This document shows positions 4,963 to 57,122 of a stretch of DNA of 64,000 bases, in pieces. The translations under genes and the position numbers were made by a program. The stretch is from Lophium mytilinum (taxonomy: Eukaryota). The stretch spans positions 689,834 through 753,833 of the forward strand of contig MU004189.1 in assembly GCA_010093605.1 (NCBI GenBank). The letters are read 5' to 3'. The notes beneath the pieces were generated by a model, which saw nothing but the letters and a program-made list of their open reading frames with translations, searched no databases and was not told the origin of the DNA. How positions within the stretch are numbered: position 1 is the first letter of the stretch; every line of letters begins with the position of its first letter.

Positions 4963-5241
4963 AAGGAAGAGGTGACGACCGACTATCTGGGAGTTTTCGC
5001 AGGAGCCCGGCGCCAGGAGTCAGGGGCTGTTTGATGTGAAAGGTATTTCAACCTGGGTGGCGCTTTTGGCGGCGTTTGGAGAATATCTAGCCGCGGTGAG
5101 AGGGTTCACATGTCGTGGTGTTGATGTGTTAGATCCTTCTGGAAACGGCTGTAATATGAGGCCAAGGTAACGACAGACTTGAATTTGCAATTGTCAACAG
5201 AGCCGATCCTCTATCACTCTACTCTACGAAACCTCTCGCAA

Positions 5242-6225
5242 CTAATGAGCGGAAGACATAGATGGAACCGCAAGCAGGCTCGTAATCCAAACACCCCATA
5301 GCTTGTATGTAACCCTGTCCGCTTGGGCATCTTTCAGCGTCAACACTCTGCAGCAAATTAAACCTCCTACCACCAACGGAGCCAGATACCCATACCACGA
5401 CGTTTCCCAAAACCTGGGCACCATGTATGACCACCACAACATGGGAACAACCACTGACCATCTTGCCACTCGATCGCCAAAAACAAGCGGTATTGTGTTT
5501 CTACCACGGCACCTATCGCCATCTTGGTCACAGAGATCCTGTATTTGAAGGGTCGTGAAAACGATGGCAGCAATCATCCATTGCCAAAACTGGCCTTCCT
5601 CGCTCAAACTGAACGGGTCGCTCCCATATGCCACGGTCGTTGCCCCCAGAGCGAAGCAGACAACAGCGCAAGCGTTGATGAGATTCCTAGCGACGGGATG
5701 ACTGCCACCCTCGCAATCGTTGTAGAGCCAACCGAGAAAGAGCAAGGTAACCGTGAACGAAGTCGCCCCAAAATGGGTACATCCTCCGAGGACAGCAATC
5801 TGAAGCGCAACCCAAAGAGCGGTTGCCTGATTTCGGCTCAACCTTTTCGATGGAACCGGGCGCCATGGCTTGTTGATCGCATCCTCTTCCACGGACTTTG
5901 GTAGACGTTGGTTACCAACGCAGAATACGAGAAAGTTGAACCAGACCCAAAAGATAACCGCAGGCAAACGTCGACTGATCGACCAGAGATCTTGCTTTCG
6001 ATACGCCTCTTCATTGAGAGCCAGGCCAGCAGACAGGTTTAACAAGCCGGTCATCGTCATAGGGTATACTAATGGCTTGTGGTCACTGACTGTGAACAGC
6101 CACAACGTTTGTAGTTGGAATCCCAGGATTCGAACGACATAAGATACGGCCGCGAGCTTGAAAAGCACTATTAGCCAAGTTTCGAGAGGAGAGCTGGGGT
6201 AACACGTACGAATGAACTTCTCCAT
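5242..6225 (-). CDS. UbiA-superfamily integral-membrane prenyltransferase / UbiA-type terpene cyclase (Fma-TC-like)
   Basis: Multiple TM helices; motifs TLWLFTVSDHK, NQ...EEDAINKPWRPVPSKR, WLYND, RNLINA and QDLCDQDGDRCRGRNTIPL. Start codon uncertain. Confidence 0.88.
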   Translation of the reverse strand: MEKFIRTCYPSSPLETWLIVLFKLAAVSYVVRILGFQLQTLWLFTVSDHKPLVYPMTMTGLLNLSAGLALNEEAYRKQDLWSISRRLPAVIFWVWFNFLVFCVGNQRLPKSVEEDAINKPWRPVPSKRLSRNQATALWVALQIAVLGGCTHFGATSFTVTLLFLGWLYNDCEGGSHPVARNLINACAVVCFALGATTVAYGSDPFSLSEEGQFWQWMIAAIVFTTLQIQDLCDQDGDRCRGRNTIPLVFGDRVARWSVVVPMLWWSYMVPRFWETSWYGYLAPLVVGGLICCRVLTLKDAQADRVTYKLWGVWITSLLAVPSMSSAH

Positions 6226-7140
6226 CGTCCCACTATCCCGTTCTTTTCCAAAGGAAACATCGTCCTTCTACCTCGTTCGGAATTTATTTGATGTGCCCCA
6301 CAGACTGTTGCTCTTCGATCATCGTGTAAGGAACCGCCCGTTGTAGCTTTTGCATTCATGTTTGAAGATTTTCAGCCTTTCTCTGAGGACACCACTCGAG
6401 CATAGGCTTGCTTCCCCTTTCTTCTTAAACTCCATTACCAACACCACTTCTACGGTCCCCGAGGGCGACGAACTCTCGGTGTCAGCAATATTGAGTCTCC
6501 ACATATCCAGCATTCGTGCATCCAACATAAAGAATTGTCCCATAGACGAGCATTTGCCCGAAGTTGTTGCATGTGTCACTTTTGGCGCCAATGCTATGCT
6601 TCGAGTCTATCTAGAGCCCTGTCGGGGCACTCTAGCGATCGAAATTTGAGAAAGCCCGGAGTTGGGGGGAGGTTACATGAATTCTAATTGGAACCACGCA
6701 GCGTCTTTACCCTAGGTCGTGCGAGTGTGCATGCATAGGTTGCGGGCAACGTCGTCACCAGCCAAGGGTCCCTTACAAGGCATTTCTATTCGTGCCTTAA
6801 TCTGATATGCTGTGTAACGACCACAACGGGCTTCCCTGCAGTTGCCAGGGTTGTAATCCTACGCCATGCATGTATGCACTCTTTTAATCCAACACTTGAA
6901 GTCTGGAATAGAACTTTGGAAATCATCCATTCGACAAGTAAGGCAAATTCTACGTTAGCCTTTCTCAACAGGTACTATATTGACGAATAGCACGTGGGCC
7001 GACTCAAAACGCTGCTGATTCTTCACGGTGCTTCTTAGTTCGATCCGATAGACCCTCTGCGATTTTACCATCCTTTACGGCAACTGTCTTGCTGAATTCC
7101 ACTATTTCCTAAATTTTCTCTCAGACATTAAGTTGTAGCA

Positions 7141-8939
7141 ATGTTTGCCACTGTAGCCTTGCTGTCGATTTTCTACGTAAGTCCTACCGAGGTATTAAGG
7201 AACGTGTAACTCACATCCATAATCCAGGTATTTGGTGTTGTCGTTTATCGCTTGACACTTCATCCACTAGCAAAATATCCGGGACCAGTGATAGCAAGAA
7301 CTACGGACTGGTTTAACGTCTACCACTCCTGGAAAGGCGATAGACATGTCCAACTTCAGCAACTCCACCAGAAACATGGTAGGCAATAGAGCTCTTTAGC
7401 AGCTTTGAAACCACTCAAGCATTTTACAGGCCCGGTTATTCGCTTTGGCCCCAACCGTATATCATTCAATACTCCTTCAAGCCTCCATTCTATCTACGGA
7501 GCTCGAGCGAATACTAGAAAAGCGGAGTTCTATCGCATATGGGAGCAACTATTTGGGTCTCCGAGCACTGCAACAATTCTTCACCACGAGACTCACGCCC
7601 CACGGAAGAGAATCCTGCAGAATGCTTTCTCAGACAGCGCGCTTAGAGATATGGAAGACGTCGTACTAGAGAACACGCGCATCTTTTGCAAGACTCTCGA
7701 AACGCCATTTTCAGTCTCTTCGGCTGCAGAAGCAAAATCAGAGCCACCCAATGAGCCTGCTTGGAATGCACCCTGGAATGTCTCATGTCTAGCAGGCTAT
7801 CTAACATTCGATATCATGGGCGACGTAGTTTTCAGCAAAAGCTTCAAGATGCAGAGCGCGGAGGGGAATCGGTCGTTCTTAGATCTCAGCTTAGATGCAC
7901 TAAGAGGTCTAAACACGGTAAGCAACCATCCCGGAGTCTTTTGAGCCGTTGACTTAATCTCTTTATTGCAGGTAGGATATATGCCAATGTTGCTAAAGCT
8001 CAAGCTTGACAAGATCCTGTTCAGCGAACTCAATGCTGGCATGGAACGGTATAAGGCTTATTGCGCCGAGGAATCTGAAAAGCGAGTGGCGCGACAGCAC
8101 GAGATGAAGACCCGAGATGTCTGGACGGAATTGATAACCGCTAGAGACCCTGCCACTGGCGAAATCTTCACCACTACAGACTTACAAAGCGAAGCTGCCA
8201 TTCTTATATCCGCCGGTAAATTTTTCTTGGCCTCGTTTCTAGTCCAGAGCTGATACTCCTAGCGTCTCATCCAATGAGAATCACACTATCCGCCACGGTC
8301 TTCTACCTGCTCCACAACCCTGAGTGTATGAGGGCAGTGACAACAGAAATTCGATCCAAGTTCCCGGGCGTCGAAGATATCCGATCAGGGCCTGCCTTGA
8401 ATTCTTGTCACTACCTCCGAGCCTGTATCACTGAAACTCTCCGTCTCTGTCCCAGTATTCCAGGTGGCCCTCTGCGCACAGCCCTGAAGGGTGGAATCAC
8501 AGTAGACGGGGAGCATTTCCCTGCAGGCACAGAACTCGGGACCTCAACATACGCGCTTCAGCACAATGGAGATTATTTTACTGAGCCCTACTCGTTCATT
8601 CCGGAGCGTTGGATCCTCCTGACTAGAGACACCGAGGAAAAAAGTTCAAGATATGCTACCCAGGACTCGCTCGACAAGGCGCGCGCCGCTTTCTGTGCCT
8701 TCAGCGTTGGGCCTATGGCCTGTCTGGGCAAGAACTTTGCCTATCACCAGGTCTCACTTATTATGGCTAGGATGGTCTGGCTGTTCGAGATTAAATTAGC
8801 GCAGGTTGTACCCGCGGACGATAGCAATGGCAGGATTGGCGGCGCGAAGGAGTGGGCAAGGGCCGGTGAGTACGCAATGAACGACAAATTTTCTGCAGAG
8901 GGCGATGGGCCATGGGTACAGGTTCGGCGAAGGACCTGA
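7141..8939 (+). CDS. Cytochrome P450 monooxygenase with atypical I-helix, 5 exons (7141-7176, 7228-7378, 7430-7917, 7972-8215, 8263-8939)
   Basis: Membrane anchor followed by HPLAKYPGP, then GPVIRFGPN, FDIMGD, ETLR, PERW and the heme motif FSVGPMACLG. All four introns are GT-AG and keep the frame. Confidence 0.92.
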
Positions 8940-9625
8940 ATGGGTAGCACGGCAGATTGGATGTCAGGACGGTTCTATTTGTGGGTTGCAGGCTCTTTGA
9001 GATTTGACTGGTCCATGAACTCCGTAATGTTTCGCAAGCATCAGCACTGAGTTTTCGGTGCAACTCTTTGCGGACAGTATAAAGACGGAGACCGACAATG
9101 ATCATCAAGGCAAGGATCAGCTAATTTTGGAGGGATCACACATGAGCCCCTCTAATGCCCATTATTCTGGACCCATGCTGAAGCTACGGGACGGGCCACT
9201 GGTGGCCGCAAATTGGGGTCCATTTCTGGTTCACGGACCACTCTCAGCGATCTCTATGCTTTCTGGGATAACTCCCGGCATCCCTGAGTGTTCGTTTAGC
9301 CGAAGTTGGTTCCTGCACGTTGGAGAACATCGTGGGGTATGGTGAATGCATTATCCCGTCCCGCAGGAAGAATCAAAATCGCTGATACGACACTCTCACA
9401 TGCTATTTCCCATTTCAGAAAACGTTCGTGTAACCTTCCCATTGAGTGCGTACCAAGCTGTCGGTGTCGTGCAGCATGTAAGGGCTTTGGAAATTCGAAG
9501 TCAACCTTGTCCCTCTGCTCGCAGCGAACGGTTCACCACTCTTCAAACATTGCCAACAACTCTCCTCCGACTGGCGCATTCCAAAACTCACCTTTAGGCG
9601 GCGCAAGGCACTCGAGGCTATCATC

Positions 9626-11377
9626 ATGTCTTTGCCTGGTCTCCTCACCTGTTTGGGTCTAGGCTTCGGCTCACACATACTCTTCTTTATTCGAGGAGAA
9701 CACCACATGAGAGGCCCGGTATACGCGGTGTTACTTCCAATCGCATGGGGAATCTTAATGGTGGCTGGAATTCGCTCTGAGAGTCTACTCAGTGCCGCTG
9801 AGACCAGCACTCTACTCTTGAGCGCATACCTCACCGGTCTCTACAGCAGCATTCTCATCTACCGTACCTTCTTACACCCTCTCCGCAATGTTCCGGGTCC
9901 ACCACTCGCCAAAGTATCTAAATTTTGGCATGTCGCGAAACTCTCTAGCCTCCATAACCATACACTATTGGAGGAGCTCCGTCACAAATATGGAGACATT
10001 GTTCGAACAGGTATGACAGCCTCGGATACGTTTGAATAAATCTGACGAAGAAACCCAGGTCCAAACGAAGTCGTGGTATTCACGCCCGAAGGAGTTCCAG
10101 CAGTTCATGGACCTTCCTCGAAATGCATTAAGAGCGACTGGTACGACATGCTACAGAAGGACCAGTCAATCCACGCCACGCGCAATCCGCAGCTTCACAC
10201 TGCACGGCGACGTATCTGGGACCAGGGATTCGGAACGAAGGCACTTTTAAGCTACCAGAAGAGAGTTCAGACACACGTCGACCTTCTCGACGATAATCTT
10301 GCACGTTCGGCCGGCGAGCCCTTGAATTGCACCGAGCTGTTCCTATTCTTCGGCTTCGATGTCATGGGGGATACGGCATTTGGACAATCGTTTGACATGT
10401 TGAAGAGCAACCAGATTCACTCCGCGGTGGAGATTATGCGTTCGGGTCTATATGTTCTTGGGAGACTTACACCGGTTCCATGGCTTATCAGGCTTCTGTC
10501 ATCGATTGCGGGCACGCGCGACTTTGAGAGGCTGGAACAATTCGCGCGCGAGCAAGTCTTGAAGAGGATCAAACTAGACCGAGATGAAGCCGACGTAGGT
10601 AGTGTGCTTCCAGAGACTGACGCCCTCGCTGACACTTAGCAGGTGATGTCAAAGCTCATTGAAGCAGCACGCGATCCAAATGACAAAGACAAGGTCGACA
10701 TGACTTTTCTACCGGCGGAAGCAACGGTGATGGTTATTGCCGGTAGCGATACTGTGTCGATAGCACTCACTTTTCTCTTCTACCATCTGACGAAACTCCC
10801 ACACCACGTCCAGAAGCTTCGCGAAGAACTACATCAGGTCGAGGATATATCCGATGCGAGAGCCCTTCAACCGCTCAGGTATCTGAATGCCCTCATTAAC
10901 GAAACACTACGTCTTTTTCCACCGGTCCCAACGGCACCTCTTCGCCAAACTCCATCGGAAGGCTTGCAGATAGGCGACCGCTTCATCCCCGGTGGTGTGA
11001 CTATCTCGACTCCCATGTTCTCGCTAGGAAGATTGGAAAGCAGCTACCCTCAAGCAGAAAGCTTTATTCCAGAGCGGTGGTACTCTGATTCCATGATCAA
11101 TAATAAGAGCGGCTTTGCCCCATTCCTTTCTGGTATGTGAACTGTCCGATTTACGATCTTCAAATAGATACGGGCTAACCGAGGTCGACCAGGAACACAT
11201 AGCTGTCTGGGAAAACAGCTGGCCCTGATTGAGCTGAGACTTGTCACCGCGAGGATAGTGACAGCATATGACTTCGAGTTTGCTCAAGGAACTAATGGAT
11301 CCGAGGTTCTGGATTTTGAGGATTGCTTTACTGCTGTTCCTGGCCCACTGAGACTGGTATTCAAGCCTCGGTCATAG
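9626..11377 (+). CDS. Cytochrome P450 monooxygenase, 4 exons (9626-10010, 10059-10594, 10643-11132, 11193-11377)
   Basis: HPLRNVPGP, YGDIVRTGPNE, I-helix AGSDT, ETLR, PERW, and heme motif FLSGTHSCLG assembled across the last intron. Confidence 0.93.
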
Positions 11378-12396
11378 GGTACTTCACTGGCTGGTCGTTT
11401 TGATATTGACTGCACAAGTTTATATGTACTCTGGCTTGCCACTTTCTATCGAGCTTAGATTCATCTCTAAAGTGTCAGATGAGGCATGACTCTCCGAGGA
11501 GCGTAAACCAAAGCAGCTCTCAGTGCTTTTGATCGACTAATTTTCCCACCTTTATGGTTGAATCCATCTTTCGAGCACTCGGGGAAGACTACAATATTTG
11601 GTTCTATCATTCTCAAATTCACAATTGCCGGTGCCAGGGGGCCATGTTGTGGTTCAAACGATCTCAATCTTGGGTATTGCGGTCTCAATATAGCTCTACG
11701 CATCCCCTGCCAGCAGCCATCAACCAAGGATTCTAATTACATGAGTTGGTGATTTTCCCCCGTCGGGAATCAGGGTCCAGCTTCATATAAAGCCAACGCT
11801 GTGGAATTGGGACTCTCCGACGCCACTGGTCTAGAACTAATGCGGCGCCAAAGTAGTGACGGTGTCGCACCGATCATACCCGAATGCGAGTCACACCGTG
11901 TGGCTCAGCATAGTTCCTATTAAAAGAAAAGTGTTCCCACTGGGGCGGGTTGTCAGGGATTAAATGCCGTACGACTGCAACAACGGGATTTAATCTATGC
12001 CCATGTACGGATGCATGGACCACAAAGTCTTGCAGACTCCTTGCGCCGTTGACATAGCACATCCCATAACAAGTACGCCCGACTAGGTTCTGCGAGTGTT
12101 GGGAACGTTCGATCATCGGCCGGAGTCACTGATCTGCAGCCATCTGTTGCTTGTGTTACGATGCCGGGGCAGGACTCATTCCTCCTCGGTGCTCATACAA
12201 AGCTGCCGTGTCTTCTTAAGTATGCGCGAGGTAGAATGGCACTCTCTCCTGATTGCTCGACGTATTGCTTTGCCGTTTAATGAACTCCAGCTTTTCCATT
12301 CCTTTACCTTCTGCCCTCTTACGAAGCTGCGATATATATATTTGAATCTTTCCCATTTTCACAACTTTAAATTACAGACCGTTCATTCAGACTGCT

Positions 12397-13609
12397 ATGG
12401 AGAATTACCCACTGGACGAGCATCATGGCCCATATACCCTTATCACACACATCGTACTCACTAGCATCGCAATGTTAGTAGTAGGATTGCGGTGCGTTGC
12501 ACGATTCACGTCTAGCGGTTTGAAAGCTGACGACTATGTGATGGTGATGGCGCTGGTGAGTACGAATGACCATTAGATCTCGTTTCTGTTCGCTAATAGC
12601 CACACAGATTGTCGCAATCACTAATTTGATTCTCACCTGTATCGGTGTGAGCCACGGTACCGGCAGACATGTATACTTTCTCAAACCAGACGATATTGTT
12701 ACCACCGTTTTGACAATGTTCCTCGGGGAGTTCCTTCTTCTGCTCAGTCTTTGTCTCGTCAAAGTCTCAGTTATGCTCTTTCTGCTTAATTTCGGCGGGC
12801 TGAAGAAATGGCTTAGGTGGACGCTACTGGGGAATATGAGCGTCATTTGCGTGTCGACGTTCGTGTTTATTGTTATTCTATGGAACCAGTGTAAGCCCGT
12901 GCAAGCGAACTGGAATGGGAAAGGAACGTGTATATCTGTGCAAGCACTAATGAGTGTTACTTATGTTTTGACTGGTAAGTTAAGCACCACAGTAGAAGCT
13001 ATTCGTACTCCACTAACACTTGCATCACAGCATTCACGATCTTAACGGATTTTATATCTGTCTTGCTGCCCTTTCCAATCATCTGGAAACTGAAACTTGA
13101 TATGAGGACCAAGATATCAATAATGGGGGTGATTGGCCTCGGGCTATTGTACGTACACCTGCCTTGCAACGTAAGGAATATCTAACACTCTCCCCAGTGC
13201 CGCGGCCTGCTCCATCGTCCGTATTTGTCTAGTTAAAGATCTCCGCCACTCCCGCGAGGATCCAACCTGGGACCTCGTAAATCTTGGCGTTTGGACGGTC
13301 GTCGAGCTCCACGTCGCCATCATCGTCGCATCGCTCCCGCCCTGCCGCGCCCTCGCGCTCCGCCTATACTCTAAGCTTCGAGGCCGTCCATACCAAGCGA
13401 CGGTTTATCCAGGGTCTTCGGGCGCGTCGCGGACAAAGCAGAGCAAGTACTCGACGAAGAATGGGAGCGTAGATGTGAATGTGTATGACAGGACTCAGGA
13501 CGGGTGGTTGAGGATGGACGGTATCGAGGCGAGGGGGGATGCGGGGAGTGATAGGAGCACGAGTGTTTTGCCACTGAATGCGAATGCGGCGGCGAGTAGT
13601 GCTGCATGA
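12397..13609 (+). CDS. Pth11-like (fungal rhodopsin-domain) 7-TM integral membrane protein without CFEM, 4 exons (12397-12555, 12608-12974, 13031-13148, 13198-13609)
   Basis: LRCVARF...GLKADDY, HGTGRH, KVSVMLF, QCKPVQANW...C, TDFISVLLP, WKLKL...K, CSIVR, DPTWD, and WTVVELHVAIIVASLP are typical of the family. Confidence 0.88.
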
Positions 13610-15052
13610 AATATTATCCGACGGGAACTGAAATTGCTAAAATCTTGTGGTTTTGTAATAGATCTACGTATGTTAGCTCTTGTAACATACAAGGAGTCAT
13701 ACAAAGCTTACTTAGATAAAGATTAGGAGATATGATGAGGCGCTTTCCCTAGACGACGTAAGGTCGAAGCATCCTAGTATCACGGCAAGTCAGTACAATT
13801 CTCCGGCGTGTTTTTGAACTTTAGTAGTATTTGATGTAGTTACTCAGACGATGTCGGTTGAAAGTGATCATGAACCGCAGAAGGTTTCACTTCGGCAAAA
13901 TGGTATTCGTCACAACTGGGTTTCATGGGAACGAAAAGAGAGCACTTACTTTATCTTAGGAACAAATTTCTTGCTGGTACATGGCTTAAAAACAGCGGGG
14001 AGCTCACATTTCCCTTTCGGTGTTCGGACTTCTATTCATTTAATCCTCTACTTCCTACACTTTTCTCACTATGTGACATCTCTAATCATTTCGAATCATT
14101 CACGTCTCTCTTGTGTTCAAAATGAGTCGAAATAGATCATTTACTCTACTAGAGATACAGCTTAAACTTTCAGTGGCTCATAGCCTACGTAACACTGCAC
14201 AAGGTGTACGCTAAGTTCTGAACTCAGGATGAGTCGATTTGCCATGCTGCTATTGGTCAGAACCGCGAGACCTAGCCACTTTTGGGAAGATTCTTGCTGC
14301 TTCCATTATCCTGCAGACATTTAGATCCAAAGGACTAGGAGATCTCAGTAGGTTCTACCACTCTCATAAATCACTCTTAATATGCATAAGTCTGTGCACA
14401 CTTGTTTAACACTGCTTGGGGCACCACCACGGGATATCAAGTATCGAGGCGCCTATGTTAACAGCACGCAGTGCAGATTAGACTCCTTTTTCACAAAGTG
14501 GCTGTTTAATGAATGAGCTAGTCCTGACAGTGGTTTCGATTGAACAAGATCGGAAGCATGTAGTAATATTTTCTTGTGGTCTAATTTTATAAATCAGCCT
14601 TCCCCATTTCAACAGCACACATATCTAAAATGACAAGCTCGATTCTTTACGTCAAGGAAATACAAGAAAAGTAGGTATAAAGTACTCCAACAACGTGCAT
14701 ATCATCGTGGATTGATCACAGCAGCGCCTTTCTTTCAAAAATATCAGTAGTAATTAGTCCTTTTCAAGTCATCTGGGCAAACAATTTGGGAAGCGTTCAA
14801 AGGCTAACTGGCAGAGAAATCGAGAGGATATAGAAGAGTACACACGAATATCTAGAGTGTAAGAGAGTATCATGGAAGGACGGTGAATGATTGATAGTCA
14901 CGTGAGAGCGCGTTCAACGTGCATAAATAGCTCTAGACTGACAAGCGAAGCTACGTCCTTCAACTCAACATCCACCCCCTGACCCCGGAGCTGATCCCCC
15001 ATAACGTCGCGATACATAGCCGCCCGGCCCACTCCAACTAGTACACCAGATC

Positions 15053-17497
15053 ATGGACGAGGGGCCAAACATGTACTCGAACCCCATGGAATTTCTGCAG
15101 CAGATGGGCGTCGGCCCGCCGGGGGGACTTCCGATGCCGTCGTCATTTCCCAGTGCTAAAGAAGTCCGATCAAAGGCGCGACCTCTATCCAGGAACGTTC
15201 TGGAAAATTGGAAGACTCTGAACACCATCATAGAGAGACATGAGGCCACAATCCAGAAGCGATGGTCGAAGAAGACGAAAGAGAGCCGGAAGAGAATTCT
15301 GCTCTCATCTTGGCCCGACATGAACGCGACTCATCGTCCTGACCTACAAGCATTCAAGATGAACTCAGTGCGCCGACTGAGAGAACAAGAAAGAACGAGA
15401 GCGGCCTACCTGTGGCCATATATCAACATAGAAGATCTGGCTAAATCCAAGCTACTTCTACTATTCATAAATGCGAGAGGGCGCAACCCACCAGATGCAT
15501 TTGCTCGGGCCGACATTGAGGCATGTCACTTTGGAATGATATCCGGTGCTATCATGCCCGCTTTCCTGAATGAGTACGTCATGATGTTCACGGGAAGACA
15601 TAGTCCTGATACGTACGGCGAACTTCTTTCTTGGGACGATCATCCCGACGCGTTCGAGTGGTTTCAGACTCAACGTGGCTGTGCACATCCGGGAGAAGGG
15701 CTTATGATTCTCGAGATCCAAGACCGCCTGTATTCCTTTCTAGTGCATACTTGCAAGTTGATTCTCCACGAGATACCTGAAGCTAGCCTACTGGATTCAA
15801 GCACTCCTGTCCAACCAGAACCCCCCTCAGTATCAGCAAACGAGACAGGGCTTTCTTCGCTAGCCATCACTGCCGCTGAAGCTCCATATCGCCTTCCAGC
15901 AGCGCTTGATTTGATGCGTTTGGAGTCGATTGTGGCAGCAAAACTATCAGCTGCGGAGGATCATGTCTTGGCACTGCGCGAGGACCCAGGCTACTTTGCG
16001 AGGGATCTCCTCGAATGGAAAGACCACCGTCAGGAGTGTCTACCTGATACCCTCGGACGTCAACACCCCCTACTCAGTGACCCTTTCAAGGAACCGATAC
16101 TGTGGGAACGGGTTGTTCAGAACGCCTTGACCACTGCAATTTCCAACCTGGAAATGTGGCATTCTGCCCACGAGCAAATCGCCAGTCTAGAGCTTTTGCA
16201 ACAGAAACATGCACCAAACATATCCCCAGACAAAGACTTGCCAGAAGAATATGCTTTCGCATTGTACAGGCTCCTACACCACCTCAAGCAGTTCAGTAAA
16301 GGACCTATTGGGGCCCTCAAAGTTGGATTTAGCGCCTCACCACCCATGCGTCCCTACTTCCATCGCGCCCCACATGATTCAAACTTTCCAAACAAGATTC
16401 GCGTCGGCAACACGACTGGTCTGCCCAAAGACCAAGACCGAGATGAACTCAGGTGGATAATGATGGCCCTATTTGACGATCAACAGCTTCATCTCGCTGG
16501 CCTGAACACGCTAACAGATGAGCTTAACCGACTGACACAAAGTAGCTTGAAAGCTCGGCAGCTCACGTCCTCATGGGTCGATGATCAAGTATCAGATCTG
16601 TCTGTGTACTCGCAGTGTCTGCATCAAATCCAAATCTATCAACCTTGGGCCGCGACATTCGAAGACAAGATGGCCGAAGTGGTCGATGAGCTTCGCAATG
16701 ACTATGTTACAGGAGTAGAGAAGTTCATGACTCCGTACTTTCACACCAGCTTTCAAGGTGCTCTTGGAGCTCTTGGCAATCCTTCGGGAGGCAGATTCCA
16801 TTATCCCGTCGACAAGCCGCGGAATCGCAAGAATACCGAAGCGATGAGGGAGGCCGAAACGGAACTGGATGCCTTCTGGCGTGTGCTACAACTGGACTTG
16901 GAACGCAATCATGCCATCACGCCTCGCCTTCGGCTCCTTCTTTCACGACCAATTCAGCGGACACCAGCTTGGACTGAAGCTGCCAGAAAGCCGACATCAG
17001 GTGTTGAAGCGTTGTTGAAACCCCTCTCCGATATAAACCTACACTTAGAGCATAGCACAGAGCATACGATCGGCCGCGACGAAATTCCTACTCGGAAGGA
17101 GAAGCCCAAGACTCGTGGAGCGATAAAGCAAGCTGAGATCGTTCCCGAAGCAGAACCTATCAACCACCAAGCACCGGAAAAAAGCCCGCTATTCAAAGTA
17201 GACAAGCGTGCGTTGAGAGTCTTGAAAACCATCTTCTTTGAGCCATCGGCATCAGCCCAACCAGGCGAAATAGCGTGGGGTGACTTTCTTCACGCAATGG
17301 CATCTACTGGATTCGAGTTCTTCAAGCTGGGCGGATCGAAGTGGCACTTCATTCCTACGAAGCTGGACAGTGAGCGTCCTATCCAAATACATGAGCCACA
17401 TCCGACCGGGAAGATTCCTTACTACACGGCTTTGCGGCATGGTAGGAGATTGTTTCGGGCGTATGGATGGGATAGGGATATGTTTGCATTAGAGTAA
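15053..17497 (+). CDS. Intronless 814-aa fungal hypothetical protein with a C-terminal HicA-toxin-like domain
   Basis: Long uninterrupted ORF. The C-terminal segment VLKTIF...EIAWGDFLHAMASTGF...GGSKWHF...IQIHEPHP resembles HicA-family toxins (recognised by eye). Confidence 0.8.
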   Translation: MDEGPNMYSNPMEFLQQMGVGPPGGLPMPSSFPSAKEVRSKARPLSRNVLENWKTLNTIIERHEATIQKRWSKKTKESRKRILLSSWPDMNATHRPDLQAFKMNSVRRLREQERTRAAYLWPYINIEDLAKSKLLLLFINARGRNPPDAFARADIEACHFGMISGAIMPAFLNEYVMMFTGRHSPDTYGELLSWDDHPDAFEWFQTQRGCAHPGEGLMILEIQDRLYSFLVHTCKLILHEIPEASLLDSSTPVQPEPPSVSANETGLSSLAITAAEAPYRLPAALDLMRLESIVAAKLSAAEDHVLALREDPGYFARDLLEWKDHRQECLPDTLGRQHPLLSDPFKEPILWERVVQNALTTAISNLEMWHSAHEQIASLELLQQKHAPNISPDKDLPEEYAFALYRLLHHLKQFSKGPIGALKVGFSASPPMRPYFHRAPHDSNFPNKIRVGNTTGLPKDQDRDELRWIMMALFDDQQLHLAGLNTLTDELNRLTQSSLKARQLTSSWVDDQVSDLSVYSQCLHQIQIYQPWAATFEDKMAEVVDELRNDYVTGVEKFMTPYFHTSFQGALGALGNPSGGRFHYPVDKPRNRKNTEAMREAETELDAFWRVLQLDLERNHAITPRLRLLLSRPIQRTPAWTEAARKPTSGVEALLKPLSDINLHLEHSTEHTIGRDEIPTRKEKPKTRGAIKQAEIVPEAEPINHQAPEKSPLFKVDKRALRVLKTIFFEPSASAQPGEIAWGDFLHAMASTGFEFFKLGGSKWHFIPTKLDSERPIQIHEPHPTGKIPYYTALRHGRRLFRAYGWDRDMFALE

Positions 17498-18272: not shown

Positions 18273-20579
18273 ATGTCTGCCGAACAGTTCATCAAGAAGT
18301 CCTATGACTATGTCATTATTGGTGGAGGGACAGCGGGGTTGGTACTCGCAGCGCGTCTATCAGAGGACGAAGCTGTGACCGTTAGTGTACTAGAAGCGGG
18401 TAGTAATCGGCTGAACGACCCTATGATTGATGCGCCGAACAACTTCATGGGGCTATGGGATAAACCGGAATACGACTGGGCGTACAAGACAGTTCCTCAG
18501 GTAGGCCAAATACGTCGTAGAAAGGTGTTTGTTGTAAGCTGAGTGTTAATTGCTATTACAGAAAGGGTTGGACAATCGAGTCGTGTACTGGCCTCGGGGC
18601 CGCTGCCTCGGAGGCTCCAGCACTATCAACTTCAATATGTTTTCTCTGGCCTCGAAACAAGACCTGGACAACTGGGGCGAACTGGGCAATGAAGGGTGGA
18701 CTTTTGATGATTTGGCGCCGTACTACCGCAAATTCGAACATTATACTCCAGCATCGAAAGATCTGGACGCCAAGCTGGGAGGTGCTTCAAAATGTGTTGA
18801 TCCGTTGCTCCGTGGAACGGACGGTCCGGTTCAGGTATGTACGCCTATGCATACCGTACCAAGAACAGGTCTTGTGCACTCTTGCTTGCCACTGCCCGAG
18901 GTACTCCAACGATTAGCGAGAAGACGAGATCGAACGGATGAATGTATACGCCAGGAACCAGAGCAGATTCACGCGCTTCTATTCCATCGATCTTGCTACC
19001 TTTCGGGCTTGTTTACATCAAGAAGTCGGTAGACTTCAGAAGTAGGGGAAAGAAGGAGTGCACAAACCTACGTTCTAGTACTGTAGAATTCCTACAGAGA
19101 TGCTGACTTTCGTAGGTCTGTTGGTCCGAATCAGATGTTGCGTGGCAACAGGAAATGTGGCCGCCAACGTGCTTAAATGCTGGGTACCCGCAACCGCAAG
19201 ACCCACGATCTGGCTCGTCGTTAGGCGGTTTCAACCAACCGCTTCTCGTGGATCCTATCACCATGAAACGCAGGTACGTTTGACCCGTGAAGAGCGTTTA
19301 CAGCTCCCAGGACCGCGGACTGATAGACACACAGCTATTCAGCTCGGGCATTCTACGAACCGAACACGCAGCGTTCTAACCTTTCAGTTCTCGCGGACGC
19401 TTTGGTGACAAAGATTGGCTTTGAGAAGGGTGAGATTGTAAAGGCTACTGGCGTCTCCTTTAAATCAGGCGGCACTTCATTCTCTGTGAAAGTCTTGAAA
19501 GAAGTCATCGTTTGCGGCGGAACGATCAACTCGCCTCAGATTCTTGAGCTCTCCGGAATCGGCTCCTCAGATATCTTGCAGGAAAATGGGATTGAAGTGA
19601 TAGTCGACAATCCTAATGTCGGGGAGAACCTGTGCGATCACTCTGCGTCGGGCATTAGCTTCGTAAGTTCTCAATCGAAAACCATGACTAAGTGGAACTA
19701 ACACTTCTTTCTCAGGCAGTCAAAGATGAGTATCCCACCGCAGAAGTCCTCCTTCGCAACCCCGAAATCGCCCAGCAAGCTTTCATGGGTTGGATGGAGC
19801 ACAAAGCCGGACCCCTCGCAAACGCCCCAACAACGGTCGCCTTCCTCCCCATCACGACCCTGGTCCCTGATACCACTCCCGTCGAGCTCAAGGCCCGCGT
19901 AGACTCCCTCGTGTCTACCCACCAGGCGGCCCATCCCGAGACCAGCGTCAGTCGCACCGCCCTTATCACCCGCCAGCTCTTCAGCCCCGGCGAAGCCGCC
20001 GTCCAATTGCTCTTCTTCGCCGTCGGCCTGGACCGCTACCACTCCTCCGCGGCTGGCCTCTTCAATCACTCCGCGCCTGGGAACTGGGTCTCGATGGTCG
20101 GATGCAGCACACACTCTCTATCGCGCGGAAGCATCCACATCAAGTCATCCGATCCAGCCACACCACCGGCAATCGACCCCGCTTATTTCAGCCACCCACT
20201 TGACCTCGAAATCGCCTCCCAGGCAATGCTGCGAATGGTGGAGCTAGCTAAGGTAGAGCCGCTGCGGTCGTGCCTCAAGCTGGATGAGCAGGGGAACCCG
20301 ATCGTGCACCCGGAGCACCAGGCTCCAACAACTCGGGCGGAGGCTGAGGCGTGGGTGAGGAAGTTGACGGCCACGGAGTACCATCCTGCGGGCACATGTG
20401 CTATGCTCCCGCGGGAGAAAGGGGGCGTCGTAGATAGTGAGCTAAGAGTGTACGGGACGAGTAATGTGAGGGTTGTGGATGCTAGCGTTTTTCCGACGCA
20501 TGTGCAGGGCAATATTATAAGCTGCGTATATGCAGTTGCGGAGAAGGCGGCGGATATAATCAAGGCGGAGATGAAATAG
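18273..20579 (+). CDS. GMC (glucose-methanol-choline) oxidoreductase, 5 exons (18273-18500, 18562-18834, 19116-19273, 19335-19662, 19716-20579)
   Basis: FAD-binding YDYVIIGGGTAG, PRGRCLGGSSTIN, GTINSPQILELSGIG, VGENLCDH, SRGSIHI, catalytic YHPAGT, RVVDAS and GN. Confidence 0.93.
18856..19081 (+). repeat. Nested imperfect inverted repeats (long fold-back) inside the 281-nt intron 2 of the GMC gene
   Basis: TTGTGCACTC (18872-81) pairs with GAGTGCACAA (19056-65). Flanking AGGT/ACCT and AGAAC/GTTCT extend the stem. Inner pairs are CCCGAGGTA/TACCTTTCGGG and CGAGATCGA/TCGATCTTG. Confidence 0.7.
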
Positions 20580-21281: not shown

Positions 21282-23028
21282 TCAAACCATAGTGCTGACC
21301 AAGTTCAGCAAAGCGCCCAGATTATCGACTCCAGCGTTCCACTTATCCAAATTCTGTGCATTGGATGGCGAGTAGCGTGAGTTCTGTGCATCGATCAGAT
21401 CGCCTAGGGTTTCCAATCCGCTCGTATGAAGAATGCGGGTAGCTTCATACTCTAACTCCCAAGCAGACTCCGTGGGCGCATCCCAAAGACTTTTTAGGCC
21501 AGGAAGCGGGAGAAACCTGTAGCTTTGCGATGGGTCGCAAGGGATTCCGGTCTTGATGCATATGACGCAGCCAATAAGGAACCATAGATGCGCAAGTCTG
21601 CAGAGTCTCAATTAACAAGAATTCGCAAGCCACACATAGATGGGTAAGATATACCGTCGTTGAGACTCGGCAAGGATCCAATCTTCCCAATTCAAACTCG
21701 GGCTAGAAAGCTCACTCTGGAATGTGGATCCTACGCAAGCGTCTTTGAATGACATATAAAGAGTCTACGCAGGTCAGCTATTGAAAGTGGGATTGTGACC
21801 GGCGACCTACATGCAATGCCATGAGAAGCTCCAGACTAGTACTTTCACTCTCGGGAGATTGGTCAATGATACACATGATCAGGTAAACCATGCAAGCTTG
21901 CACTGCCGCAAGCAACTCGAATATGGGCATGTGGTGCTTCTTTCAATGGTCAGAACGAGATGAATACGGGGTGGACAGAAACATACCTCGTTGATGAAAC
22001 GACGATACTCGGCTCTGATGGCACACCAGAGATAGAACTTTGTTTCAGCTGTTCGAGAAGCAAAAATTTGCGCAATGCTCATGCAGGTTGACAATGCTTC
22101 AGGTAGAGCACCTTTTGGTGACTTCGAGAGGAGGTGCGAATGCGGATGGATATACCAAGGAAAAGTGTTCCTTCGTAGCATCATTGTGGGAAACGATCTC
22201 ACCGCCTGAATTACAAGGTTGGCGTTGTGCTGAGCATGAGGCCGCTCCTTTTGCAGAACTGCTAGGAGATGAGAGTCTAGCTCTACCATATAATTCTCAT
22301 TCACCACGGATAGAGAGACACCTGTACTCGTCCATGTGCACCAGGACGGCGATTTCTGGTCGCCTTTGTAGTATGGAGTCATTGAGACGTCCGATAAGCT
22401 TTGAAGTTGACCGGAAGTATCATAATCGAATGCGAGAAACCCATCGAGTGTGAGTGACTCGTTGAATGAAAATGTCTGCGCGTTTGGGTCAATCGATGGA
22501 GGACTGTCGCTGTTGGTAAAATGATGTTCGGCGTAACCCATGGCTAGATGGTCGGTAAAAGGAACATTTGCACTAGAAAAGTTCCCGCCGTCCGCATACA
22601 ATGACCAGGGTGCAAGAGAGACACTTGGTGTATCCGAAGGCCTTGGGACTATCTCGGGGGCTGTTCTCGATGAAGTAGGCAAGGCGCGCCTCGGATCTGT
22701 AGCCGCTCCATCGTACACGCACTCAATGTTCTTCTTCTTACACCGCGTACAAGGTGTTTCAAAGCTGCATTTTATCTTCGTAGCATTACACGCGCGACAT
22801 GATCGCGGCCGTTTGCGCTTACGACTACCACAGTAACGAAGATGCCGATGGCTTGAAGATTCTGCCCCAAATGGTTAGATACTATGGAGTAGGCATATAG
22901 GCCCTAGAGGACGTCCTACCACTGGAGAAAGGTTTCTTGCATTGGGAGCAAAAGTAAACGGCACTTGGCGAAGACGAATCGTGAGACAGGCGGCTAGATG
23001 AATTGGTAGAGGCCGACTGTCTTTCCAT
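21282..23028 (-). CDS. Zn(II)2Cys6 transcription factor with an N-terminal C2HC/C2H2-type finger, 5 exons
   Basis: ATG at 23028. CSQCKKPFSSESSSHRHLRYC finger across intron 22919-22862, then CRACNATKIKCSFETPCTRCKKKNIEC. Downstream PWYIHP, WEDWILAESQRR and LPLPGLKSLWDA. Confidence 0.88.
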
Positions 23029-28207: not shown

Positions 28208-29476
28208 TCAAATCAATGGGGGAAAGGCGTGATATCGACTCTTTTGCGGGTCTAGAACCTGCCTCGCTTGCAATGCTCCGGATATAGGAAGTCTTTGCAG
28301 ACCTTCCTCCTTCATGTCCTTGGGTACATTCTCTGGATCGAGAAGTCCGATTTGAAGCAGCACGGAGGCTTGGTCCCAGTACACATGCTCTTGTGTCAGC
28401 TTGCCGCCCCGTACTCCGACAATGCTGACTATTGGTATTTCGACTTTCTTGTTCGTTGGCGGTACGTTTGGTAGAAGCCAATCAATTTCGGCAGTGTGGG
28501 TAAAAGACACGACCATTTCGTCGACTACGCGATCTACACCAATTGTACGGGAGACCAGGCGGATCTTAGAATCTGGGGCTATGGATGGGTCGAAGTAATC
28601 CCGATAGAAGACTTCGAGGTCTTGCGCGCCGATGCCCCCAGTGAGAGTAGGGCCATAGGTGACGTGTGGGTCCTCCGGAACCATTATGTCTACCATCTCG
28701 GACCCATATTCATCATCGTATAATTCGGTAGTGAATTTCACTGAGCATGGTCATCAGCCTCATCGTTCTCAGCACTTGGTGCAGATGCATCTCACATTGT
28801 AGACTCTTATCCCAGGTCTCCTCAACTTGAGGTCTTGAGTCCAGCCTAAAACCCCTCTGCACGCATCCCAGTGTCCTTCCCCATGCTAAGCCTGCTTCCA
28901 CTCCCTCAAACTCAGGTTTCGCATACTCTGCGAAACCCGGCGTTGTTCCTGCGTATCTATAGGACTTGAATTCCGTCTGTGGCACGACCTGTCTTCCAGC
29001 GAGATGCACCACGAGCTCTAGCTGCGAGGGATAGGTCGCTCGCGGGTTTGGGATCACAGACGGGTAGTAAGCGACCAGCGCGCAAAGTCTCGGCATCGGT
29101 TTGGTTGCAATCCGCAGAACTACAGAAGCAGCTGTACCGTAGGCGATGAGGGCGTAATGGACGCCGAGGGGCAGCTCGTTATGGAGGGCCTTGAGCCGCG
29201 CAATATAGGTATTGGGGTCGGCGGTAGGTTTGTAGGGGAGGTACTTCGTTGTGAAGCCTTAATGCATATATCAGTGAGCAGGTTTGGAGCCAAAGTCAAT
29301 TGGATAAAATAGTTCTAGTTACTCTAAACCAACGCACCTTCTTCCTTCCAATACCTCAGAGTCGTTTCATCGAACTCTTCCTCGTCGCCGGTTATCCAGA
29401 CCAGCGGGGGTTTGGCATTGAAGCTCAGGAAGCCTGTAGTCCCATTTGGAGTCGCATTGCCATTGCTGAGAGGCAT
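28208..29476 (-). CDS. Dienelactone-hydrolase-like / SnoaL (NTF2-like) two-domain fungal protein, 3 exons (29476-29338, 29257-28796, 28740-28208)
   Basis: WKEEGF, YALIAYGTAA, ALVAYYP, GFAE, AWGRTL, then SnoaL-like PTLTGGIG, LVSRTIGVDRVVDEM, WLLPNVPPT and EHVYWDQASVLLQIGLLDP. Confidence 0.88.
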
Positions 29477-43900: not shown

Positions 43901-44607
43901 GCTGACCCGCATCCTCTCTTGCAAGCCCCTCTTACTATAAATGATGCTGAAACAGTATCGGTTTGGAACTTCGAGGTAGAAAGCGTTACCATTATCTAAA
44001 CTGTGACCTACTCAAGAGGTAAAGTCATATGGAGTACGAACTCTCCAGGAGCATATAGAGGCGGGAGTCAGAGGGAGGAGAAGACACTTAAGGTAAAGTA
44101 TGCGCCGGGGAGTCAGTATTATAAAGCTGAGAGCGAAGGATAGGATCGAAGGCATTCACACGAAGGACTTGGAATCGATTTTACTTGTACAACAACGCAT
44201 TCACGTATGATAGGAGCGGAAGAAGGAACACGTAAACAAGCCTCTTCGTATTGTTGCTTTAAAAACACGTAGCTTGTCTGGTGTATCCCTGTTTTGGCTG
44301 AAGCACTTCATCGCACATTCAGAGGCCGACTGGCCGGTCGGTCGGGCGTCGGTATAGGAAGAAGACGATGACTTGAGCGGAATTCCACTGAGGGGGTGTG
44401 GGGATGATTAGTTTTGACAGCCACCGGGGGAAGACGGCGCGCGGTGCCTGAGGACGCTTGGACCCGAGGTCGTCTAGATGTTATCTTGGTACCTAGCGCG
44501 CGTCATGATGTTCAGATTATTCCCAACAACCATTGTGTCTTCCAGAAAGCTCCGTTGAGCTGCACAACGCCCAAAAATTCCCCAGCGCGGGCCTCCCAGC
44601 TTTGAGA

Positions 44608-45997
44608 ATGACGAGCCGGTGTCCTAGGCTCGTGAAGAGCAGCTTGAAACCCCCACCATCACTCCGCTCGCCATGTTTGCAAGCCATCCTCTCTCCCGCC
44701 GTCCACGTCCACTCCCTCTACCATCCTAGCCGGCGAAGAAACCAATCAAGCTGGGCTACTGCTGTCTCAGCTGCTCAGCATGTCTTCAGTGCTACTCCCG
44801 ACCCCAAGTCGCCAATCGGAGCCGATCCATTTCAAACCGTCGCGAAAGAGATGAAGTTTCTCACCAAGAACATAAAACAGCTGTTAGGATCCGGCCATCC
44901 CTCACTAGATACAGTAGCAAAGTACTACACGCAATCAGAGGGGAAATATGTACGGCCAATGTTGGTGTTGTTAATGTCAAGAGCTACTGCTCTCGCCCCC
45001 AAGAGTAGTCGATCGCTCATACCCGAATCCGTGGACAAGTCCTTTGCGTCCCCGGAAATCCTCATGGACGAGAACCCCTCTGCGCCCGCCTACTCACCAC
45101 TCACGTCGCTATCAAACGAACCTGCCTATGCCTCTGAGGACTCGGAGATCCTTCCGTCTCAACGGCGCTTGGCCGAGATCACCGAACTTATTCACACCGC
45201 CTCGCTCATCCACGACGATGTCATCGACCACTCGGAAAGCCGGCGCTCCGCGCCCTCAGCGAATATCGCGTTTGGCAATAAAATGGCAGTTTTGGCCGGC
45301 GATTTCATGCTAGGACGCGCGTCTGTCGCTCTAGCCAGGCTACGGGACCCAGAGGTGACGGAGCTATTGGCGACGGTCATTGCGAACCTTGTGGAGGGAG
45401 AGTTCATGCAGTTGAAAAATACCGCACAGGACGAGAAACACCCAATTTGGACCGAGGATACGGTCACATACTATCTCCAGAAAACCTACCTTAAATCCGC
45501 GAGTCTAATAAGCAAGTCGTGTCGAGCCGCCGCTTTACTTGGCCAGAGTACTCCGGAGGTTGTAGAAGCCGCATACTCGTATGGAAAGAATCTTGGGTTA
45601 GCGTTTCAGCTGGTCGACGACATGTTGGACTATACGATCAGTGGAGCAGAGCTTGGAAAGCCTGCTGGGGCTGACTTGGAACTTGGTCTTGCCACAGCGC
45701 CCCTGTTGTTTGCTTGGAAGGATAATAAGGCTCTTGGAGCGCTCGTTGGGAGGAAATTCTGCCGGGAGGGAGACGTCCAAAAAGTAAGAATAGCTACTTC
45801 ATTACAGTCACAGCTACTGATCATAACATGACCAGGCTCGAGAACTTGTGGCCCAAAGTAGCGGATTAGAACAGACCCGAGCGCTTGCTCAAGAATACGT
45901 TGACAAAGCGATCCAAGCCATCAGCGCGTTTCCCGAAAGCGACGCCAAACAGGGACTCATCGAGATGTGTGAAAAGGTTCTGAAGAGGCGGAATTAG
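44608..45997 (+). CDS. COQ1: Mitochondrial polyprenyl diphosphate synthase for ubiquinone, 2 exons (44608-45783, 45836-45997)
   Basis: Mitochondrial presequence, GKYVRP, ELIHTASLIHDDVID..RR, GNKMAVLAGDF, LVEGEFMQL, LGLAFQLVDDMLDY and GKPAGADLELGLATAP. Confidence 0.95.
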
Positions 45998-55983: not shown

Positions 55984-56961
55984 TTACATGAACGGTCTCA
56001 CCTTCTCCTCGCACCAGTCCCAGAGCTTCTTCGCATTCCCCTCATCGATTGCCCTGTAAACATCCTGCCGCGAATTAGGCTTTATGACCCCGAACGGCCA
56101 AATATAGCACCCATTCTGGGCCATAGTAATCTTCTCCGAGAATCCTGCAAACATCATCGTATACGTACCATATTTGGCGTGGTACAGCACGAAAGTCTTC
56201 AGGAAAAGCACGAACAGCCAATGCTCGCCAGCATAAATCCCCGTGTACAAGTTCCCAGGATTCTGGCACACGCTGATGATGCCCTGATCTCCCCATCTCG
56301 CGGCGCCTTCGTGTGCGAGGAAGAGATTGCCGCATTTAGACGCTGCGTAGTCGATATACTGCGTGACAGTCTTGCCACCATTGAGGCGCGGGAAGTCAAT
56401 GCCTCCTGGTGGCGAGTTCATTTCGATCTGGACGGACCCTGTCCAAACGACTCGCGACGGCTGGGTGGAGTTCTTTGCACCAGCTCGAAGAAACGGGACG
56501 AGTAAAGTCGTGAAAAGGAACGGTCCAACTGCGTTGGCGCCCATATGCGCTTCAAGGCCTTGGGGGGTGGACGACCCCGGTGCACAGCCCATGGCTGCGT
56601 TATTCCATATGATGTGCAGCTCCTTCTCCTGGGCTGCGAATCTCTCATAGGCTGGCTTCACGGTTCGAAGGTCGCTGAAGTCGAGCCCATGGAGCGGTTT
56701 TAGAATTCCCCTGGTACCTGAGGTGGATGCTGTTGACTCGATCTCGGCAATGGCCTTGGTGATTCTCTCCTCGGACCTTCCGGCAAGATAGATGGTTGCG
56801 CCGGTGGGGTAAAGGAACTTGGTGAGCTCTTTCCCGATTCCAGAATTCGCGCCCGTGATGATGAAGACTTTGCCCACTTGGCTTCCGGGTACAAGGTCCG
56901 CTTCCGTAAAGGTGGGTGATCCGGAGGGGAAAAATTGCTGCCAGATTGTTTTGAGCGACAT
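55984..56961 (-). CDS. Short-chain dehydrogenase/reductase (retinol-DH-like classical SDR)
   Basis: ITGANSGIG, WNNAA, RVVWTGS, catalytic YAASK, NPGNL and KLWDWCE. Confidence 0.92.
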   Translation of the reverse strand: MSLKTIWQQFFPSGSPTFTEADLVPGSQVGKVFIITGANSGIGKELTKFLYPTGATIYLAGRSEERITKAIAEIESTASTSGTRGILKPLHGLDFSDLRTVKPAYERFAAQEKELHIIWNNAAMGCAPGSSTPQGLEAHMGANAVGPFLFTTLLVPFLRAGAKNSTQPSRVVWTGSVQIEMNSPPGGIDFPRLNGGKTVTQYIDYAASKCGNLFLAHEGAARWGDQGIISVCQNPGNLYTGIYAGEHWLFVLFLKTFVLYHAKYGTYTMMFAGFSEKITMAQNGCYIWPFGVIKPNSRQDVYRAIDEGNAKKLWDWCEEKVRPFM

Positions 56962-57122
56962 TATTGCGGTGGCATTGAACAATGACGGAGGAAGACTGAG
57001 GTAAACCTTTTTGGATTCAAGTTTCGAGGTAAGCTGACGAAGCCGGCTTATGTAAGCCTTTAGCACAGGGTGAGATAATTCGAGGTTGGTTCAGGGATAA
57101 TTAAGCCCATGACCGAGAATCT

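Follow-up and report, generated by a model that had tools for sequence, protein, structure and literature searches.

UbiA-type terpene cyclase clusters in fungi

Gene clusters in which a terpene cyclase of the UbiA type stands beside cytochrome P450 (P450) genes have been described since 2013–2018; the type is not new, and a further example of it, though well supported, is not surprising to a specialist. The example analysed here lies in a stretch of 64,000 nucleotides from Lophium mytilinum (GenBank assembly GCA_010093605.1, contig MU004189.1, positions 689,834 to 753,833 of the forward strand), referred to below as the window and numbered from its first letter. Positions 5242–13609 of the window hold a block of ~8.4 kb with a gene for a UbiA-type cyclase, two P450 genes and a gene for a seven-transmembrane (7-TM) protein of the family PF20684. 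The block is probably a terpenoid cluster of four genes, in which the cyclase would act on farnesyl diphosphate (FPP), the two P450s would oxidise its product and the 7-TM protein would have an accessory role.

Several described systems can be set beside this locus. In the HEx study, 326 UbiA-like terpene clusters were found with antiSMASH2, so that the remark of an earlier reading of the window (the first-pass annotation) that standard cluster finders can miss such clusters does not hold in general; 13 clusters with a proximal P450 were reported as expressed, and five of them gave oxidised sesquiterpenoids (PMC5895447). The HEx clusters, among them TC1 of Trichoderma virens, TC3 of Botrytis cinerea and TC9 of Schizophyllum commune, resemble the window in combining a UbiA-type cyclase with one or more proximal P450s. 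According to the published account, the HEx products were oxidised sesquiterpenoids obtained in yeast, and TC9 has two adjacent P450s, as the window does (PMC5895447). These clusters come from different species, and the likeness is one of description and not of sequence comparison.

As far as its description goes, no published cluster comes closer to the block than Pb_bis of Penicillium brasilianum (~7.5 kb), which encodes the cyclase BisA, the P450 BisB, the 'GPCR-like protein' (like a G-protein-coupled receptor) BisC and the decarboxylase BisD, and whose cyclase, Pb_BisA, gave beta-bisabolene in yeast (PMC11393291). Like the block in the window, Pb_bis is reported as compact, its cyclase gene having those of a P450 and a GPCR-like membrane protein as neighbours, and as standing alone without a polyketide synthase (PKS) or a nonribosomal peptide synthetase (NRPS). 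The two cyclases also share a motif I of the form N-Q-R-x-P-x-S-V-x-E-D and a motif II of the form QDxxDQxGD. The tailoring genes differ, since there are two P450s in the window and a decarboxylase is missing there, whereas Pb_bis has the P450 BisB and the decarboxylase BisD; this comparison was made by descriptions and not by alignment. Pb_BisA is reportedly 31–36% identical to the BibS alpha-bisabolol synthases of Luo et al., ascomycete UbiA-type cyclases that are said to have a distinct motif I.

Fma-TC, the beta-trans-bergamotene synthase of Aspergillus fumigatus, is reported to be a UbiA-fold FPP cyclase with an adjacent multifunctional P450 (PMC5895447, PMC9835599). The fumagillin cluster additionally contains a PKS, an acyltransferase and other tailoring genes, none of which is present in the block. 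Because Pb_BisA, which shares the motifs of the window cyclase, is given as only 24% identical to Fma-TC (PMC11393291), the window cyclase probably falls into another subclade than Fma-TC. A further likeness is to Tps1A and Tps2A, (+)-(S,Z)-alpha-bisabolene synthases of the basidiomycete Antrodia cinnamomea, whose reported cluster also has a P450 and whose motif II is QDxxDxxxD (PMC9835599). The vinigrol, lpg and sydonol pathways concern other cyclase types.

The locus offers a compact target for heterologous expression, with four genes and transcript-confirmed P450 gene models, in a little-studied Dothideomycete, and its product may be an oxidised sesquiterpenoid so far undescribed. Two of its features are unexplained, namely the 7-TM gene that recurs beside such cyclases and the unusual I-helix of the first of the two P450s (P450-1).

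Family, fold and motifs of the probable cyclase

The cyclase protein matches the UbiA family (Pfam PF01040) over residues 95–310 with an E-value of 1.9e-22 and 80.2 bits against a cut-off of 34.2. An AlphaFold2 model consists entirely of helices (predicted local distance difference test, 93.7; predicted template modelling score, 0.89). The best Foldseek match of this model was 6m31, a digeranylgeranylglyceryl phosphate synthase (E 2e-6, TM-score 0.55–0.62), and further matches were 7bpu, 4tq4 (AfUbiA), 4od4 (ApUbiA) and 8djk, with UBIAD1 among the UbiA-fold matches. The motifs quoted in the first-pass annotation (NQ..EEDAINKPWRP, YND and QDxxDxxGD) were all recovered. Motif I reads N105-Q-RLPKSV-E-E-D115-AINKPWRP, motif II reads Q229-D230-L-C-D233-Q-D-G-D237, which corresponds to QDxxDxxxD, and Y168-N-D is placed between them.

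Alignment with UbiA, MenA and CyoE of Escherichia coli (K-12 record) showed where the protein departs from canonical prenyltransferases. These enzymes have the same fold, as do COQ2 and COX10 (the counterpart of CyoE), and the three E. coli proteins are 13–18% identical to the window cyclase. In motif I, N105 is kept and the distance from this residue to the RP dipeptide is equal in the window cyclase and in E. coli UbiA. By contrast, the series N-D-YA-D-RKF-D of UbiA corresponds to N-Q-RL-P-KSV-E in the window, with Q106 and P109 at the positions where the prenyltransferases keep aspartates, and the window cyclase thus does not carry the prenyltransferase motif NDxxDxxxD. In motif II, D233xxxD237 aligns with the DxxxD of UbiA and is preceded by an additional Q229-D230 that the canonical prenyltransferases do not have. 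According to PMC9835599, QDxxDxxxD marks UbiA-type terpene synthases (Tps1A/2A, Fma-TC and EriG), as opposed to the DxxxD of prenyltransferases, and mutation of Tps1A at D100, Y155, D215, D218 or D222 abolishes the product. The putative counterparts in the window cyclase, D115, Y168 and D230/D233/D237, have a similar spacing: D115 and D230 are 115 residues apart, exactly as D100 and D215 of Tps1A, and D115 and Y168 are 53 residues apart against 55 in Tps1A. From this spacing, Y168 would be the counterpart of the essential Y155. The reported motifs of Pb_BisA are N95QRHPGSVAED105 and QD219MYDQPGD226 (PMC11745945), and N105QRLPKSVEED115 of the window has the same 11-residue form of motif I.

Among 27 relatives, no variation was seen at N105, Q106, E114, D115, N118, K119, R122, Q229, D230, D233, G236 or D237, and Y168 is conserved in at least 90% of them. 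The family is large, a profile search counting 841 representatives at E <= 1e-30, one per 50%-identity cluster. In a collection of 270 proteins, motif I had the long form in 180, the long form preceded by a second N in 18 and a short form in 42, the first ones listed of these 42 being bacterial relatives; QD was found at motif II in 242 of the 270, and none of the 270 had the exact motifs of Pb_BisA. No named or characterised cyclase was found among the relatives from the profile search, where the fungal proteins are unnamed or 'hypothetical' and the others are bacterial UbiA-family proteins. Likewise, no characterised protein was found among the 10 that were looked up out of 150 unnamed relatives listed from the 841.

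A tree of 59 rows was built with E. coli UbiA, MenA and CyoE as outgroups. The fungal family formed one group (82 in the Shimodaira–Hasegawa-like approximate likelihood ratio test) adjoining a bacterial group (99), one member of which is labelled (R)-axinyssene synthase by the Joint Genome Institute (JGI). The three E. coli enzymes were placed outside this fungal and bacterial cyclase-like group, on very long branches. The nearest proteins to the window cyclase were that of a related locus, L001 (64% identity), and one of Epicoccum nigrum. The tree covers only part of the phylogeny proposed in the first-pass annotation, its reference enzymes being the three of E. coli. Judged by its motifs, the window cyclase is probably a member of the fungal UbiA-type terpene cyclase family to which Fma-TC, BibS, Pb_BisA and Tps1A/2A belong.

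A conserved unit of four genes

The extent of the cluster was defined by comparison with L001. A tblastx search of window positions 1–30000 against this locus gave one colinear stretch only, in which 5248–13417 of the window corresponds to 10873–3245 of L001. The stretch holds the cyclase, P450-1 (56% identity), the second P450 (P450-2; 65%) and the 7-TM gene (50%). On both sides of it the two loci are unrelated: L001 is flanked by a subtilase and a molybdopterin oxidoreductase, and the window block by DPB2 on one side and an 825-aa protein, a glucose-methanol-choline (GMC) oxidoreductase and a Zn2Cys6 factor on the other. Since the same four genes are colinear within unrelated flanks, the conserved unit is made up of four genes, and the three-gene block ending at 11377 of the first-pass annotation has to be extended to a right border at ~13.6 kb. 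The remaining layout given there was confirmed, namely a cyclase gene divergent from P450-1 across about 0.9 kb, a second P450 in tandem (a four-exon gene matching PF00067, with transcript-confirmed introns) and a left end 280 bp from the DPB2 stop (4962 against 5242). The divergent region is presumed to be a shared promoter of the cyclase and P450-1.

To what extent these genes are co-located elsewhere was addressed by a scan of metagenome contigs. This returned 353 relatives, from which 80 loci were kept and reduced to 43 groups at >=90% identity; 11 groups with <8 kb of sequence were left out, and the 32 remaining representatives plus the window gave 33 loci. Frames of >=80 aa were clustered across these loci, and recurrent clusters were named with Pfam. 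Besides the cyclase (33/33), the families found within 10 kb were P450 (24/33), one subfamily of PF20684, the 'fungal rhodopsin domain' (21/33), methyltransferase (10/33), alpha/beta-hydrolase (5/33), an oxidase of the FAD/BBE type (flavin adenine dinucleotide/berberine bridge enzyme; 4/33) and short-chain dehydrogenase (SDR; 3/33). With hidden Markov models (HMMs) made from the neighbour clusters, 24 of the 33 loci had an N-terminal exon of PF20684 within 10 kb (median distance, 2.2 kb) and 23 had a P450 heme exon, which was upstream on the opposite strand in 19 of these 23. In L014 the nearest PF20684 match of the HMM is unconfirmed by Pfam, and a confirmed PF20684 frame stands 4.4 kb away. 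Together with the colinearity of L001, these counts (24/33 for P450 and 24/33 for PF20684) answer the question of synteny raised by the first-pass annotation, as the genes are co-located in other genomes; this synteny and the spliced transcripts described below show that the arrangement does not reflect chance.

The linkage is also dependent on distance. PF20684 matches numbered 25 at 0–6 kb from the cyclase and 2 at 6–10 kb, with none at 8–10 kb, and P450 heme-exon matches numbered 33 and 3, respectively, the two zones comprising 354 kb and 182 kb of sequence. Side and strand vary among the loci and the linkage to the cyclase stays; moreover, loci with PF20684 are scattered over the entire cyclase tree. 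Many ascomycete UbiA-type cyclase genes, often in lichen-derived assemblies, are thus accompanied by a PF20684 7-TM gene. A larger version of the cluster occurs in L029, L030, L040, L051, L052, L056, L065, L072 and others, and adds a methyltransferase (in 10 loci) and an alpha/beta-hydrolase (in 5) to the cyclase, a divergent P450 and PF20684. In a further version, a FAD/BBE oxidase is present in 4 loci and an SDR in 3.

Evidence of transcription came from one public run of one study (X1), kept as contigs, in which 56% of the sampled words of 5000–13700 were present. Contigs of X1 skip all seven predicted P450 introns, four in P450-1 and three in P450-2, all with GT..AG ends, and one contig runs unspliced over 5557–6191 of the cyclase gene. 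The spliced joints identify the X1 contigs as transcripts and therefore confirm the P450 gene models, which had been built from GT..AG introns. In this run, the cyclase gene and both P450 genes are transcribed. Contig depth was nil in the bins of 6455–7036, within the divergent region; stretches without cover were not used as evidence.

Proposed pathway and alternative explanations

The pathway that we consider probable can be outlined by analogy with the described enzymes. The diphosphate of FPP would be bound through Mg2+ held by N105 and D115 of motif I and by D230, D233 and D237 of motif II. The cyclase would then ionise FPP, and the allylic cation would cyclise in a membrane-embedded cavity, in whose chemistry Y168 may take part as the conserved aromatic residue. 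The expected product is a sesquiterpene hydrocarbon or alcohol, which the two P450s would subsequently oxidise, and the PF20684 7-TM protein would be the conserved accessory component. Cyclase rather than transferase activity, FPP as the substrate and the action of the P450s on the cyclase product are all inferred.

The main alternative concerns chain length. The cyclase might act on geranylgeranyl diphosphate (GGPP), as EriG does, or on a substrate of another length, so that the product would be an oxidised diterpenoid. The diterpene cyclase EriG is a member of the same family (PMC9835599, PMC12703729), and the bacterial sister group in the tree carries a diterpene synthase label from JGI. 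On the other hand, the ascomycete UbiA-type cyclases described in PMC5895447, PMC9835599, PMC11745945 and PMC11393291 all use FPP, as far as these accounts go. FPP is also favoured over GGPP because there is no GGPP synthase gene in the four-gene block or in its colinear counterpart in L001, and because the sole polyprenyl synthase of the window is of the long-chain type. The latter gene lies 31 kb from the end of the block, past housekeeping genes; it matches PF00348 (E 8e-64), is closest among solved structures to 3apz (a geranyl diphosphate synthase entry) and then to solanesyl and octaprenyl diphosphate synthases, and is probably a COQ1-type enzyme of ubiquinone synthesis. The diterpenoid explanation is for these reasons unlikely.

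About as improbable, and slightly more so, is that the UbiA-fold enzyme is a prenyltransferase whose acceptor, aromatic or otherwise, is supplied by genes elsewhere in the genome, with the P450s tailoring a meroterpenoid. PF01040 is mainly a prenyltransferase family, all the solved structural matches of the cyclase model are transferases, and automatic labels of '4-hydroxybenzoate polyprenyltransferase' or 'digeranylgeranylglyceryl phosphate synthase' point in the same direction. This reading is disfavoured because of the motifs, as Q106 and P109 replace the aspartates that follow the N of NDxxDxxxD and motif II is of the cyclase type, and because acceptor-forming genes are missing: a scan of all 125 stop-to-stop frames of >=110 aa in the window detected no domain of a PKS, an NRPS or a class I terpene synthase, and no PKS, NRPS or other acceptor-forming gene was among the recurrent neighbour families of the 32 related loci. 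In addition, Pb_BisA, whose motifs take the forms seen here, is reported as a bisabolene synthase. The view of the first-pass annotation that a stand-alone cyclase is more likely than an aromatic prenyltransferase, including its statement that the window contains no PKS or NRPS, is accordingly supported by motif, fold, conserved neighbourhood and the lack of an acceptor pathway nearby. That the four genes are mere neighbours acting independently, without a common pathway, is very improbable, for although P450 and PF20684 genes are numerous in fungal genomes and no pathway-specific regulator was found inside the block, the four genes are colinear in a relative with a 64%-identical cyclase and unrelated flanks, P450 and PF20684 genes concentrate at <6 kb from the cyclase and are gone by 8–10 kb across the 33 loci, and the linkage persists while orientation and side vary.

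Several observations weigh against the proposed FPP cyclase cluster. The assignment is made by analogy with enzymes from the literature, and the placement of the window cyclase beside Fma-TC, BibS and Pb_BisA is based on motifs quoted in papers and not on the tree, in which the outgroup consists of three E. coli proteins, all with very long branches, and contains no fungal aromatic prenyltransferase. The published motif I of UbiA-type terpene synthases, represented by Tps1A/2A, is NxxxG/AxxxD (PMC9835599); motif I of the window cyclase is two residues longer and does not fit it literally, a literal fit being seen only in bacterial relatives. Many relatives carry the automatic JGI label '4-hydroxybenzoate polyprenyltransferase', and 9 of the 33 loci have no P450 within reach, several of these having short flanks. 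Apart from the spliced joints, the RNA nature of X1 is a guess. As for the fourth gene, the 7-TM protein is divergent, matching the HMM of the main neighbour group with E 1e-8 against 1e-30 to 1e-50 for the members of that group, and its gene is barely covered in X1. One X1 contig (13119–13434) also runs ungapped across the predicted third intron of the gene (13149–13197), and could stem from a transcript left unspliced, from carried-over DNA or from a gene of another structure.

The two cytochromes P450

Pfam PF00067 matches the exons of both P450 genes, whose products are 27% identical to each other and contain ExxR, PERW and FxxGxxxCxG. The heme loop is FSVGPMACLG in P450-1 and FLSGTHSCLG in P450-2. 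P450-2 has a canonical AGSDT I-helix together with ETLR and PERW. In P450-1, the I-helix (window 8170–8300, with the exon junction 8215/8263) reads SAASHPMRITL, against the usual (A/G)Gx(D/E)T(T/S), and the adjoining intron is confirmed by a spliced transcript. The ortholog in L001 has SAASHPSRTTL. P450-1-like genes beside other cyclases have TTGSDTTA (L010 and L011), STGSDTTS (L002–L004) or IAGSSTSA (L007). Because the loss of the acid–alcohol pair is conserved between the window and L001, the sequences of two species suggest an unusual P450 chemistry, with a non-standard activation of oxygen, in this subclade.

The seven-transmembrane protein

The 7-TM protein is a full-length member of PF20684 (E 3.8e-53), with residues 31–268 on positions 1–235 of the 237 of the profile. 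PF20684 is the 'fungal rhodopsin domain' (PTH11-like), and the nearest Atlas clusters of the protein all belong to it. The translation of exon 2 was found letter for letter in a 351-aa public protein of L. mytilinum, the hypothetical BU16DRAFT_618124, which has the same length as the spliced gene model. PTH11-like PF20684 proteins are commonly annotated as GPCR-like, and BisC of Pb_bis is, from its description, probably the counterpart of the 7-TM gene. This uncharacterised 'GPCR-like' protein, as reported, was the only counterpart met in the literature searched, in which no paper linking PTH11, PF20684, Fung_rhodopsin or SAT4 to a terpene pathway was found.

It is conceivable, and we propose it only tentatively, that the PF20684 7-TM protein takes an active part in UbiA-cyclase pathways and is not a bystander, with a possible non-standard chemistry of P450-1 as a second departure from the known scheme. 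As an intramembrane partner acting between the cyclase and the P450s of the endoplasmic reticulum, the protein could take up the lipophilic product, isomerise it, carry its cyclisation further or export it. If it were functional in the terpene pathway, membrane-bound terpenoid biosynthesis might gain a component not known before. A complex prediction for the cyclase with the 7-TM protein gave a score of 0.00, with controls not run, and counts neither for nor against binding.

Two side observations concern the 7-TM domain and GMC oxidoreductases. The protein atlas contains a cluster of 52 members that are PF20684–GMC oxidoreductase fusion proteins. In L059 and L061, a GMC gene that is 36% identical to the GMC gene of the window adjoins the cyclase homologue (L061 12733–13398, L059 4620–5285). 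Together, these fusions and neighbours hint at a link of the 7-TM domain with redox enzymes, although the GMC gene is absent from the colinear block of L001.

Gene layout and flanking genes

The coordinates of the four genes and of the other features of the window are collected in Table 1.

Table 1. Position, strand and structure of the cluster genes and of other features in the window
Feature	Position	Strand	Details
DPB2 frame	ends 4962		PF04042, E 6e-37; ~280 bp before the start of the cyclase stop codon at 5242
UbiA-type terpene cyclase gene	5242..6225	-	single exon, no intron; 327 aa; stop codon 5242-5244; stop-to-stop frame 5242-6267, first ATG at 6225
Intergenic region cyclase/P450-1	6226..7140	.	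915 bp between the two start codons (ATG), head-to-head
P450-1 gene	7141..8939	+	exons 7141-7176, 7228-7378, 7430-7917, 7972-8215, 8263-8939; 531 aa
P450-2 gene	9626..11377	+	exons 9626-10010, 10059-10594, 10643-11132, 11193-11377; 531 aa
PF20684 7-TM gene	12397..13609	+	exons 12397-12555, 12608-12974, 13031-13148, 13198-13609; 351 aa
825-aa frame	15020-17497	+	no Pfam family
GMC oxidoreductase	18521-20579	+	5 kb past the 7-TM gene
Zn2Cys6 factor	21879-22874	-	
SnoaL-like match	28208-28750	-	weak, below cut-off
Polyprenyl synthetase	44509-45831	+	PF00348, long-chain type
Short-chain dehydrogenase	55984-57090	-	
Short-chain dehydrogenase	60626-61483	+	

Several flanking genes were considered as members of the cluster and dropped. 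The GMC oxidoreductase and the Zn2Cys6 factor are absent from the colinear L001 block, and the polyprenyl synthetase was dropped as being of the long-chain type. The Zn2Cys6, SnoaL-like and two SDR genes, which have a flavour of secondary metabolism, are scattered, with no synteny link to the cluster. The 825-aa frame, the longest of the window, was dropped as well. The nearest atlas clusters of its protein consist of ascomycete proteins labelled hypothetical or 'Ipa protein family', and its C-terminal 100 residues resemble the HicA toxin fold with low scores.

On the other side of the cluster, the summed depth of X1 contigs in the bin 5000–5290 was 216, against 2–11 elsewhere in the stretch, and one contig overruns the left end. 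This peak probably corresponds to the 3′ end of the DPB2 transcript or to another abundant RNA in the 280-bp gap between the convergent genes.

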